A stretch of DNA of 24,255 nucleotides. It comes from a virus (taxonomy: Duplodnaviria; Caudoviricetes). The position numbers were made by a program, and so were the translations under genes. The notes beneath the pieces were generated by a model. That model had not been told where the DNA came from. It saw only the letters and a program-made list of their open reading frames with translations, and did not search any database. The DNA lies in the IMG/VR virus record IMGVR_UViG_3300030095_003304, positions 1 to 24,255 of that record, one strand, 5' to 3'. How positions within the stretch are numbered: the first letter of the stretch is position 1; the number at the start of each line of letters is the position of its first letter. Of the stretch, positions 7,845 to 12,318 are shown piece after piece.

Positions 7845-8026
7845 TGCCGTGTTACAGAATTACATACACTCGTCGAGATATGCCCTCACCCTGTGGTTCT
7901 ATCAAAACAGCACACACCCAAGAAGAAGCAATTAAATGCTTGACTAATGGTAGCAAGACTAAAGGATACAAACTAAAGAAAACGAACGTTCCAATCACAA
8001 TTACTAAGATAACAGAACTAAACTAA
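7844..8026 (+). CDS. Small hypothetical protein (60 aa)
   Basis: TGATG stop/start overlap with dnaB. Confidence 0.7.
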   Translation: MPCYRITYTRRDMPSPCGSIKTAHTQEEAIKCLTNGSKTKGYKLKKTNVPITITKITELN

Positions 8027-8034
8027 AACGACAG

Positions 8035-9180
8035 ATGACATGGCATCACAATCAAACAAACATAAGCTCAACACCTTCCACCTCTTCGCAGGAGCAGGAG
8101 GTGGCATTCTCGCTGACCTCTTACTTGGACACAATCCAATCGGAGCGTGTGAAATTGAACCCTACCCAAGAGATGTTCTCCTCGCCAGACAACGAGACGG
8201 ACACTTGCCAAACTTCCCAATCTGGGACGATGTATGCACCCTCAACGGAACACCCTGGAGAGGATCAGTTGATGTTCTTTGCGGAGGATTCCCCTGCCAA
8301 GACATCAGTGCGGCGGGTAAAGGAGCAGGAATTACTGGAGAGCGTTCAAAGCTATGGAAGGAATATGCGAGACTCATTGGCGAAATGCAACCTAGATTTG
8401 TCTTTGCCGAAAACTCACCTTTGCTTCGCACTAGGGGACTTGGAGTTGTCCTCGAAGACTTGGCCTCGTTGGGGTATAATGCTCGATGGGGAATTATCGG
8501 AGCTAGGTCTGTCGGTGCGCCCCATAAAAGAGACAGGATGTGGGTTCTTGCTTCCGACTCCAGATGCAAGCGAGCGAGGCCCATGCAAGACGTTCAACCC
8601 AAAGGCAAAGAGTCAGTCTGGGAGGACGTTACAAACACTAGCGAGTTGCGATCCGATGGGGAAGATATGGCCTACACCAACTTGCCAAGAGACGGAGCAT
8701 CCAGATGCGACACTGACTCAGACTGGTCGGAGATTATCAAAGAACGGCAGGACGAGTCACAGCTTGAATCTAGCGGATACAGTGAAGAGATGGCCTACGC
8801 CAAGGAGTTGCAGTGCAATGGCAGCAACGATCACACCAGAGTCAGCGCACAATCCCAAGAGATTTCCAAATCTGGAAACGGTGGTAGGTCAAGCAACCTG
8901 GCCTGCTCCTTCTGGCACACAGACCCCGCAAGTATATCTTACACCACAAGCCAACGAAGACGCTGCGGGAACACCAGCAGGGAAGATGCAGAAGATGTTG
9001 GGGAACTCAGAGGTGGTGAGAGGGAAGACCCCAGAGGAATGGAAGAAGGGGACTTTGAACCCCTCGTGGGTCGAGTGGCTAATGGGGTGGCCAATAAGGT
9101 GGACAGACTTAAAGCCATTGGTAACGGACAAGTTCCGCAATGTGCAGCCGTGGCATTCAACATTCTCTCAGAAGGACTAA
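8035..9180 (+). CDS. C5 methyltransferase beta-like chain in an overlapping frame (TRD-like PTP repeats and motif IX); true start may be internal
   Basis: 381 codons open over the other frame; LPTP/WPTP/WPTP/WPAP/LTP repeats; LNPSWVEWLMGWPIRWT resembles motif IX (L-x-P-x-E-x3-L-[QM]-G-F-P-x2-[WY]). Confidence 0.8.
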   Translation: MTWHHNQTNISSTPSTSSQEQEVAFSLTSYLDTIQSERVKLNPTQEMFSSPDNETDTCQTSQSGTMYAPSTEHPGEDQLMFFAEDSPAKTSVRRVKEQELLESVQSYGRNMRDSLAKCNLDLSLPKTHLCFALGDLELSSKTWPRWGIMLDGELSELGLSVRPIKETGCGFLLPTPDASERGPCKTFNPKAKSQSGRTLQTLASCDPMGKIWPTPTCQETEHPDATLTQTGRRLSKNGRTSHSLNLADTVKRWPTPRSCSAMAATITPESAHNPKRFPNLETVVGQATWPAPSGTQTPQVYLTPQANEDAAGTPAGKMQKMLGNSEVVRGKTPEEWKKGTLNPSWVEWLMGWPIRWTDLKPLVTDKFRNVQPWHSTFSQKD

Positions 9181-9185
9181 TCTAA
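8040..9185 (+). CDS. C5 cytosine DNA methyltransferase, alpha-like chain (motifs I-VIII and X)
   Basis: HLFAGAGG (I), CEIEP (II), WDDV (III), GGFPCQDIS (IV), FAENS (VI), PHKRDRMW (VIII), RLKAIGNGQVP (X); motif IX not seen in this frame. Confidence 0.92.
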   Translation: MASQSNKHKLNTFHLFAGAGGGILADLLLGHNPIGACEIEPYPRDVLLARQRDGHLPNFPIWDDVCTLNGTPWRGSVDVLCGGFPCQDISAAGKGAGITGERSKLWKEYARLIGEMQPRFVFAENSPLLRTRGLGVVLEDLASLGYNARWGIIGARSVGAPHKRDRMWVLASDSRCKRARPMQDVQPKGKESVWEDVTNTSELRSDGEDMAYTNLPRDGASRCDTDSDWSEIIKERQDESQLESSGYSEEMAYAKELQCNGSNDHTRVSAQSQEISKSGNGGRSSNLACSFWHTDPASISYTTSQRRRCGNTSREDAEDVGELRGGEREDPRGMEEGDFEPLVGRVANGVANKVDRLKAIGNGQVPQCAAVAFNILSEGLI

Positions 9186-9199
9186 TCACTAAAAGAACT

Positions 9200-9445
9200 A
9201 TGACAACAGACCTAGACGAAGCACGACAATATGCAGACACAATGCTTGAAGCCTTGGACGTAATGGGGAGGGCAATGTATTTTTGCTTGAACCATCCCAA
9301 CTCTTCAGAGTTCAAAGCACACCGCAAACTTCTCATCGGAGCGCACGAACGTATGGGTAAGGACACCACCCACTTTCTAGCACAGATAGACGAGCCAGAC
9401 CTTCCCTACGAGCCAACCGAAGAAGAGTTATCACAGCATGGCTAG
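9200..9445 (+). CDS. Hypothetical protein (81 aa; start revised from 9140)
   Basis: ATG 9200 after an A-rich leader just downstream of the MTase stops. Confidence 0.75.
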   Translation: MTTDLDEARQYADTMLEALDVMGRAMYFCLNHPNSSEFKAHRKLLIGAHERMGKDTTHFLAQIDEPDLPYEPTEEELSQHG

Positions 9446-9890
9446 GGGGGAAATCAATCCAGTCTTAGGCATGACGGAAGGTAAGTTCCGCACCATGATT
9501 AAGTCTGCCCTCAGACCTTGCTGGCGCAACTCGTCCCGCAAGACCTTCATCCAGTCCGTTCGTAAGCGCGGCATCAACCCAGCTACAGGTAGAGAACGCT
9601 TCGTAGTAGTCTGCGTAGACTGCGGCAAGGAGATGGGTATATCAGAGAAGGAGAGGCGCACAAAGATTGACGGAACCCTGGAGAAGCGAGCCAAGAGTGT
9701 GTATGAGATTGACCACGTAGATGGCATCACACCCTTCACAGATGTTCAAACCCTAGAAACTTTAACCCCACACTTCAGAGATATGATCTACGGCAAACAA
9801 GAGGTTGTGTGTGTGGCCTGTCACAAGGTTCGCACAGCCAATCAAAGAAAGACAAAGATAACCCTTGACACACCTAACCAACATCCATAA
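9438..9890 (+). CDS. HNH-like Zn-binding endonuclease
   Basis: CVDC ... EIDHVDG ... VCVACHKVRT pattern. Confidence 0.75.
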   Translation: MARGEINPVLGMTEGKFRTMIKSALRPCWRNSSRKTFIQSVRKRGINPATGRERFVVVCVDCGKEMGISEKERRTKIDGTLEKRAKSVYEIDHVDGITPFTDVQTLETLTPHFRDMIYGKQEVVCVACHKVRTANQRKTKITLDTPNQHP

Positions 9891-10647: not shown

Positions 10648-10726
10648 TATAGCCAACCCTTGTCCTAACTAAACCCCAAGACGCATGGCGGGGGAGACGC
10701 AACTCTCCCCTGCTTGCCACAATGAT

Positions 10727-11119
10727 ATGACAGAGATCAAAGACACTAATCCAAAAGACAGAGTTGGCATACGCAAAGCCCCAATGTCTGGTCTACCAGC
10801 ACCAGTTCTTATGGAATGTGGCTTGGTTAAATTACACGGAGACTTGAAGTATGGTGCTTACAACTGGCGTGAAGCTGGCGTTAGGGTATCAGTTTATTAC
10901 GACGCTGTATGGCGGCATTTGACCGCTTGGTATGAGGGCGAAGACTTAGACCCAGACTCTGGAGAGCATCACATAGCTCACGCTATGACAGGGCTAGCAG
11001 TCCTTCGTGACTCTCAAATGTTTGGTAACTGCGTTGATGACAGACCAATCTCACATAAACCAGGATGGGTGCAAGACATGAACAAACGTGCCTCCGCAAT
11101 GATTGATAAATCTAAATAA
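10727..11119 (+). CDS. DUF5664-like dATP/dGTP diphosphohydrolase domain protein (start revised from 10685)
   Basis: TNPKDRVG-K-PM, G-x2-KYG-x-YNWR, YYDA-x2-RH, GEDLDPDSGEHHIAHA signature. Confidence 0.82.
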   Translation: MTEIKDTNPKDRVGIRKAPMSGLPAPVLMECGLVKLHGDLKYGAYNWREAGVRVSVYYDAVWRHLTAWYEGEDLDPDSGEHHIAHAMTGLAVLRDSQMFGNCVDDRPISHKPGWVQDMNKRASAMIDKSK

Positions 11120-11634: not shown

Positions 11635-12318
11635 ATGCCTAAGAAAAACACAGTCCTTATTATCGGTGACACGCATTGCCCAGCGATGCACAAAGACTAC
11701 ATCAAGTTCTTAAAAAAGATAGAGAAGAAGCACACGTGTAACAGGGTTGTTCACATTGGTGACTTAGTAGATTGGAACTCCATCTCCTACCACGAGAAAG
11801 ACCCATCCATGCCCAGTGCAGAGGATGAGTTTGCGGAGGCATTTAAGCAGGTTAGGAAGCTACACAAAGCCTTTCCATCCGTAGACTACCTAAAGGGTAA
11901 CCATAGTGACCTGCCGTCCCGTAAGGCTAAGACCATTGGCATACCAGAGCATTTGATGAAAGACTTCAAGTCTCTGTGGCAACTAGAAGGTTGGACTATC
12001 CACCCTCGCTACCACGATCTTCTCATTGATGATGTCATCTACCGTCACGGAGACAAGGGTAAGGGTGGACAACAAGCTGCATATAAGAATGCCGTAGCTG
12101 AGTTCAACTCTCTCGTCCAAGGACACCTACACGCACAGGCTGGCCTCGTATATCACGCCAACCAACATGAGTGTGTCTTCGGTATGCAAGTAGGATGTGG
12201 CGTAGAACATGACCACCCGTCTATGAACTACGGAAGAGTGTATGCCGCCAAACCAATCGTTGGCTGTGGTGTTGTCTACAGTTCCAAGGTTGCTTTCTTT
12301 GAACCAATGTTTCTATAA
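11635..12318 (+). CDS. Calcineurin-like metallophosphoesterase
   Basis: All five motifs: GDTH, GDLVD, GNH, HGD, GHLH. Confidence 0.92.
   Translation: MPKKNTVLIIGDTHCPAMHKDYIKFLKKIEKKHTCNRVVHIGDLVDWNSISYHEKDPSMPSAEDEFAEAFKQVRKLHKAFPSVDYLKGNHSDLPSRKAKTIGIPEHLMKDFKSLWQLEGWTIHPRYHDLLIDDVIYRHGDKGKGGQQAAYKNAVAEFNSLVQGHLHAQAGLVYHANQHECVFGMQVGCGVEHDHPSMNYGRVYAAKPIVGCGVVYSSKVAFFEPMFL

Follow-up and report, generated by a model that had tools for sequence, protein, structure and literature searches.

The question raised by this locus is whether a single stretch of phage DNA, read in two frames from end to end, encodes two chains of one C5 cytosine methyltransferase. The window, meaning the whole stretch of 24,255 nucleotides analysed here, is a single 24-kb phage contig. 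Its translation verified what the preliminary description had read from the letters: two frames of 381 codons each, both free of stops, start at 8035 and 8040 and stop at 9180 and 9185. The frame that starts at 8035 (beta) is the +1 frame relative to the one that starts at 8040 (alpha), and TAATCTAA at 9178–9185 supplies the stops ending at 9180 and 9185. The overall layout is as follows.

8040–9185, plus strand: alpha chain open reading frame, 381 aa, predicted catalytic body of a C5 cytosine methyltransferase (motifs I–VIII, linker, motif X); PF00145, E 1e-30; M.HhaI, E 9e-13
8035–9180, plus strand: beta chain open reading frame, 381 aa, +1 frame relative to alpha; PHROG 1008, E 7e-26, and open-frame tests
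8035–8043, plus strand: paired starts ATGACATGG, giving M-T-W in beta and the alpha ATG 5 nt later; they lie 8 nt after the stop (8026) of an upstream 61-codon gene

A second frame of this length could be a by-product of codon usage or an artefact of assembly, and +1 frames do generally contain fewer stops than +2 frames. In the chance test, one protein was held fixed and synonymous codons were redrawn by phage codon usage in 5000 draws. With the alpha protein fixed, 8.4 stops were expected in the beta frame over alpha 1–172, and with the beta protein fixed, 13.1 were expected in the middle part of the alpha frame; in neither case was any of the 5000 draws stop-free. The +1 frames of ten other genes of the window hold between 9 and 63 stops each. 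The openness of both frames is far beyond chance. Nor is the two-frame layout an assembly slip, as contigs from two public marine runs match the region without insertions or deletions. The contig of run X5 equals 7951–9127 with zero differences and that of run X1 equals 7900–9000 with three, all upstream of the methylase gene; either run could be the source of the window.

The alpha chain comprises three parts, for which the standard C5-methyltransferase motif numbers were assigned from alignments together with the general consensus.

8070–8555, plus strand: alpha motifs I–VIII, with FAGAGG at 8085, the catalytic PC at 8292–8297, ENS at 8409 and HKRDR at 8523; confident Rossmann-type model
8556–9053, plus strand: alpha linker, an unconserved read-through of the beta modules, free of stops; pLDDT mostly below 50
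9054–9182, plus strand: conserved C-terminal part of alpha with motif X (GNGQV at 9120–9134), from alignment and model

Besides PF00145, alpha matches PHROG 363 and, over residues 12–171, M.HhaI; the matches to M.HhaI and PF00145 are confined to motifs I–VIII. Motifs I, IV (PC), VI (ENS for ENV), VIII (Q/HxRxR) and X are invariant in 64 alphas. The structure model, for which 64 sequences were used, has high confidence over motifs I–VIII and the motif X helix and a pLDDT below 50 for most of 198–360, and it aligns to M.HhaI over 172 columns (E 1e-12), which shows that the HhaI-like large-domain fold is present. Between motifs VIII and X the linker is unconserved and varies from 58 to 267 codons across 65 non-redundant relatives. 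The earlier picture of frame 8040 as motifs I–VIII and X around a featureless middle was therefore upheld by profile matches, model and linker alike. Alignment and model show neither a motif IX nor a conserved recognition region in alpha, so that the canonical single-chain form is not what this frame encodes. The enzyme to which alpha would belong is predicted to make 5-methylcytosine in DNA.

The beta chain starts with an extension and a core, and ends, after a run of modules, in a short conserved segment.

8035–8349, plus strand: beta N-terminal extension, approximately residues 1–105, open throughout the clade, with weak amino-acid constraint
8350–8544, plus strand: beta conserved core, residues 106–170, with WPRWG at 8461–8475, common to relatives with a nested beta
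9055–9093, plus strand: beta motif-IX-like segment LNPSWVEWLMGWP, in frame 8035

In the alignment the beta chains begin with M-S/T-W, which is followed by a core that closes with WPRWG (143–147), PTP-headed modules and a near-invariant LNPxWVEWLMGWP segment. The protein collection contains 2262 relatives of beta, and PHROG 1008 also matches it. Sequence and profile searches gave no Pfam, NCBIfam or PDB match; the PF00145 profile check of the two frames thus separated them clearly, with alpha alone matching. Modelled alone, beta folds poorly (mean pLDDT 52.9), and its model had no fold match in PDB or BFVD, a search that carries no meaning at such low model confidence; in the ESM Atlas it matched unnamed viral clusters only. 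When six single-chain relatives were compared by HHalign, the LNPxWVEWLMGWP segment aligned weakly, and in register, with their in-frame motif IX (E 0.005, probability 7%), and the beta motif-IX profile matches the in-frame motif IX of locus L109 (E 9e-5). Moreover, of the 72 loci in which the distance from the beta segment to alpha motif X could be scored, 71 have a spacing of 62 nt; this set was picked by beta and includes some duplicates. Frame 8035 had been credited with repeats resembling target-recognition domains (TRDs) and with motif IX from 9055: the repeats, the position and the register held up, and the identity of motif IX is weak by profile.

Whether the second frame is maintained by selection was determined in its relatives. 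Beta had partly guided the choice of the first 88 loci, which are hence biased and include some duplicates; motif IX lay in the +1 frame in 76 of the 77 that could be scored (11 could not). Because of this bias, an unbiased set was picked by the catalytic motif alone and gave 121 loci, 80 of them with full flanks. In 60 of these 80 viral loci the +1 frame contains a motif IX of beta type; the one in L114 resembles a canonical motif IX that is out of frame. Loci that lacked motif I, had a broken alpha or were more than 90% alike were then removed, and the remaining 105 of the 121 were scored for stops between motif I and a point 28 codons beyond motif IV. In the clade whose motif I reads LFAGAGGG, 38 of 39 non-redundant viral loci had no +1 stop over this interval, and a single stop was seen against 107 expected. 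The other 66 loci showed 168 stops against 288 expected and 13 of them were stop-free, which indicates that the null over-predicts stops somewhat, a point in favour of the codon-usage explanation. Several viral loci have single beta stops or a G-run frameshift. In a further set of 80 loci from bacterial genomes, picked by alpha alignment, the +1 frame was open for at least 209 codons in 72 of 75 scorable loci; beta breaks early in the other three, with one stop each in L262 and L289 and several in L264, which has an internal start like a nested beta. Interruption of frame 8035 by stops in close homologues, a result that would have spoken against the second frame, is thus not what the clade shows.

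The start of beta is conserved as well. A start of the type M/V-small-aromatic was found in the beta frame of 177 of 185 distinct clade loci, and in 169 of these 177 the alpha start lies at −4 (the common ATGAATGAG type) or at +5 (the type of the window). In 31 loci the start has shifted to a position ahead of motif I, where alpha imposes nothing on it, and 19 of the 31 still read MxWxxSxA; the subgroup of the window keeps only M-T-W of this motif. The 5-nt offset described for both ends is correct for the window, and tight pairing of the 5′ starts is a family trait. The offset of the 3′ ends is −5 in the closest relatives and, in other loci, anything from about −140 to +52 nt; equal length is therefore incidental and not a trait of the family.

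The constraint is unevenly distributed along the overlap. At the beta core, the wobble bases of alpha are fixed: alpha Gly145 is GGG in 65 of 65 sequences and the third base of alpha Ala142 is C in 53 of 53, so that P144 and G147 of beta are fixed; the wobble bases under motif IX are likewise fixed. The proposed test of synonymous-site constraint thus gave a clear signal at the core. Over motifs I–VIII it did not: in three close pairs, fourfold-site divergence was 30/235 in this part of alpha and 156/966 in the flanking genes, a decrease that was not significant (p 0.23). Therefore, beta residues 1–105 must stay open and yet are weakly constrained, and the sequences indicate that over motifs I–VIII the constraint on alpha dominates. 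Within the modules the picture is the reverse. Module 3, compared with 12 relatives, shows 85, 50 and 237 differences at beta codon positions 1, 2 and 3, with 15% of beta residues changed against 65% of alpha residues, and in two other modules, with three relatives each, the corresponding values are 25% against 71% and 10% against 28%. Such a distribution of changes indicates that selection inside the modules acts on beta and not on alpha. This codon-position pattern by itself refutes the view of beta as a by-product or artefact, against which the stop-redraw test, the run contigs, the fixed wobble bases and the clade-wide openness also speak; its probability is practically nil. The second frame is real, selected and widespread.

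In a quick tree of 80 alpha cores, all two-frame loci except L114 fall into one strongly supported clade. The LFAGAGGG group (35 rows including the window) forms a strongly supported end-to-end subclade among nested forms, and nested betas, which account for 21 of the 80 rows, are common in the sister clades. Scans put the family at about 1900 viral and 1700 bacterial-genome stretches. By these comparisons the end-to-end overlap, initially presented as striking, is borne out but is not unique: it is the rule in a large and widespread phage clade. Among the best bacterial-genome matches of alpha, several (L215, L230, L231, L234, L235, L242) come from Verrucomicrobiota assemblies, but the matches as a whole span many phyla.

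The distribution of nested forms bears on where beta translation begins. The enzyme may consist of two chains, with translation of the true beta beginning at an internal start as it does in M.EcoHK31I; the open 5′ part would then be either an optional leader or a relic. This would be consistent with the frequency of nested betas in the sister clades, with the reversion of L264 to an internal start, with the weak constraint on beta residues 1–105 and with the internal methionines that support activity in M.EcoHK31I. The single stop seen in place of 107 in the 5′ part, together with an M-x-W start that is not only conserved but relocated when the start moves, makes such an arrangement very unlikely; an internal start may be used in addition to that at 8035.

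The region between the beta core and the motif-IX-like segment is composed of tandem exchangeable units, which are situated between motifs VIII and IX and are carried on beta.

8551–8667, plus strand: beta module 1, LPTP..., 39 aa, shared with L148
8668–8790, plus strand: beta module 2, WPTPTCQE..., 41 aa, common to three close relatives
8791–8898, plus strand: beta module 3, WPTPRSCS..., 36 aa, the largest module cluster (15 members), found on distant alpha backgrounds
8899–8934, plus strand: module remnant, 12 aa, WPAP...
8935–9054, plus strand: last beta module, YLTPQANE..., 40 aa, common to three distant loci

The beta of the window thus has four modules and one remnant; across 68 betas the number varies from 0 to 5, with about 25–44 residues per module, and 157 longer modules fall into 70 clusters, 46 of which are singletons. 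Three of the four modules of the window also occur in loci whose alphas are just 59–67% identical to its own, and six relatives with alphas 85–95% identical all carry different module strings. Contigs from the marine runs join at or near the module borders 8545, 8783 and 9055, although joints of low likeness may belong to other phages. Judged from these sequences, the modules are shuffled between lineages. By eye, they match the published TL consensus of phage recognition domains in part, W-P-T-P corresponding to P(STCA)PT(ILV) with PT followed by P and not by I, L or V. From their position, exchange and mode of selection, it is rather likely that the modules set specificity. That a four-module beta has several specificities at once is conceivable, with the balance slightly against it.

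Other arrangements were noted at the 3′ side of the overlap and around it. In L131 the beta core and one module are in the +1 frame, and the later modules, motif IX and motif X are in the alpha frame. In L098, L113, L144, L147 and L153 (the LFSGYGGL clade) alpha terminates directly behind motif VIII and is followed in the +1 frame, in an AquI-like manner, by a long beta with many modules. An HNH endonuclease open reading frame (L106:483–851, minus strand; PF01844, E 2e-5) is inserted in another frame between motifs IX and X; such an insertion is also present in L222 and in proteins P0021, P0047 and P0064, and the beta frame continues across it as far as motif X, which creates a third layer of overlap. 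A common run of ten G just past motif IV in L020 and L106 comes with a frameshift that swaps the two frames and may reflect phase variation or an assembly error. Joins of 8009 to 9190 or of 8020 to 9176 in contigs from runs X5 and X15 (short sides, low likeness) suggest relatives in which the whole methylase cassette is missing or replaced.

Taken together, the best explanation of the locus is considered probable with good confidence: two chains from overlapping frames, with modules predicted to read the target. Both open reading frames would be translated from one shared initiation region, in roughly matched amounts. Alpha would supply SAM binding, catalysis and motif X, and the beta core with its motif-IX-like helix would pack on alpha and rebuild the small domain. 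The alpha linker would exist only to carry the alpha frame through to motif X, and each PTP-headed beta module, 30–45 residues long, would serve as a target-recognition unit. Such a four-module beta would likely mark several sequences and so shield phage DNA from host restriction enzymes.

The functional parts follow one another along the DNA in canonical order (I–VIII, modules, IX, X), which would also agree with a single polypeptide made by programmed frameshifting, translated in alpha over motifs I–VIII, shifted by +1 into the modules and motif IX and shifted back for motif X; the occurrence of modules and motif IX in the alpha frame of some loci, such as L131, points in the same direction. 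This mechanism, however, would work without an open beta over motifs I–IV, a conserved start of beta or a stop-free alpha linker, all three of which are kept, and the characterised precedent consists of two chains; it is quite unlikely. The same low probability is assigned to alpha being the whole enzyme, with relaxed specificity, and beta a different protein, such as a regulator, an inhibitor or a DNA-binding protein, with no more than the DNA in common with it. Beta indeed has no recognised fold, but alpha lacks motif IX and a conserved recognition region, and the invariant segment of beta sits at the position of motif IX at a fixed distance from motif X. Furthermore, motif X itself lies in the beta frame in the natural variants L126, L222 and L280, as is expected if the parts complement each other.

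The two-chain reading can be extended, tentatively and at somewhat below an even chance, to a general proposal built on the sequences of the clade: its C5 methyltransferase would consist of a catalytic chain and an overprinted full-length specificity chain, whose modules are traded as a kit with one target each, both chains being made from one 9-nt double start, and a passive alpha linker would let modules come and go without breaking either frame. Long overlaps on the same strand whose two products both work in a single enzyme are rare and known from textbook cases. If true, one dual-coded gene, overlapping from end to end over a kilobase, would encode two subunits of the same enzyme, the clade would hold a natural library of programmable methylases, and the TRD of EcoHK31I-like enzymes would move to beta. 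If the modules set specificity, they also amount to a testable code in which each module points to a methylated motif, which would bear on phage anti-restriction, viral methylomes and the engineering of split methylases. In practice, cloning or annotating alpha alone, or recoding its codons, would likely lose activity and miss the determinant of specificity.

The methylase gene sits among replication genes (exonuclease, DnaB helicase, HNH nuclease), and DNA of its region occurs in marine metagenomes. Downstream there are a dATP/dGTP pyrophosphohydrolase-like gene at 10685–11119 and a metallophosphoesterase gene at 11635–12318, and L005 has about 590 extra bases (2297–2898) between the HNH gene and the next gene when compared with the window. 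No partner restriction endonuclease was recognised, the nearby HNH gene (9438–9890) matching ordinary phage HNH families. A scan for promoters and terminators stayed at chance level, inspection by eye found no Shine-Dalgarno motif before 8035, and RNA run X15 contained only diverged pieces of the region as contigs, which say nothing about the expression of this gene. On both strands of the window, CCGG occurs 2 times against 90 expected and GTAC 16 times against 148, and GGWCC, GGCC, GATC, CATG and several 6-mers are also avoided. This avoidance of palindromes shows restriction pressure and not the target of the methylase, the purpose of which is probably protection from host restriction.

The expectation that gene callers would miss the second frame was half right: callers often choose one of the two frames, as reflected in the 2262 beta-like proteins and in PHROG 1008. 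In the records of three cultured phages, alpha is the only one of the two frames to be annotated; Salmonella phage S9-5 and Vibrio phage ZQ26 are end-to-end cases in which beta carries no annotation. In Paenibacillus phage Shelly, gp56 (YP_009598579.1, RefSeq) is a nested beta annotated as 'g55 internal gene'. A literature search, thin on subscription journals and REBASE, turned up no paper describing a family of phage methyltransferases with two frames overlapping end to end; PMC8788219 does not mention methyltransferases and the mentions in PMC3711429 are unrelated. Shelly gp56 and PHROG 1008 are database entries for a nested-type beta and serve as annotation only, and the beta of phages Shelly and Xenia does not reach the 5′ end, unlike that of the window.

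Bacillus phages SPR, phi3T, rho11 and H2 encode orphan multispecific C5 methyltransferases. The locus resembles these enzymes in being an orphan phage enzyme with several swappable units between motifs VIII and IX; theirs, however, are single chains in one frame, whereas the units of the window lie on a predicted second chain, and the likeness is one of layout with the TL consensus matched in part. Passages of PMC2413257 describe multispecific phage enzymes with swappable TRDs that carry a TL motif, titles cited in PMC8936443 concern multispecific phage C5 methyltransferases, and the general roles of the C5 motifs are treated in part of PMC5944983. In M.AquI (CYCGRG), according to the section on it in PMC3404938, two chains are split in the variable region and beta, which follows alpha, carries motifs IX and X. 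The preliminary description was therefore right to cite M.AquI as another split enzyme, and in the window the split also falls in the variable region; it differs in that motif X stays on alpha (frame 8040). The relatives L126, L222 and L280 have the M.AquI-like motif split and retain the overlap.

The closest known system is M.EcoHK31I, the primary account of which is said to be that of Lee, Kam and Shaw from 1995. In this Escherichia coli enzyme (YGGCCR), the relevant passages of PMC2836561 and PMC3404938 assign motifs I–VIII, X and a predicted TRD to alpha and motif IX to a beta encoded wholly within another frame, in agreement with the preliminary description; in PMC2836561 both chains are stated to be needed in vivo and internal methionines to support activity. 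The two systems, likened by description, would have in common two chains from one gene, with a second open reading frame in an alternative frame that is under selection. The division of motifs, with IX on beta and I–VIII and X on alpha, fits in position and register, with a weak profile match. In M.EcoHK31I, however, beta is smaller and nested and the TRD is assigned to alpha, whereas in the window beta spans the full length from a start 5 nt ahead of that of alpha, and the variable region, conserved and modular, lies on beta, the middle of alpha being unconserved. Because it has neither a small nested beta nor a TRD on alpha, the locus is a variant of the M.EcoHK31I type and not a member of it. 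A two-chain methylase is thus known; the locus differs in that its frames overlap end to end and in that the modules likely to serve recognition are carried by beta. Judged from its motifs and their partition between the frames, the locus very probably encodes a two-chain C5 methyltransferase that works like M.EcoHK31I.
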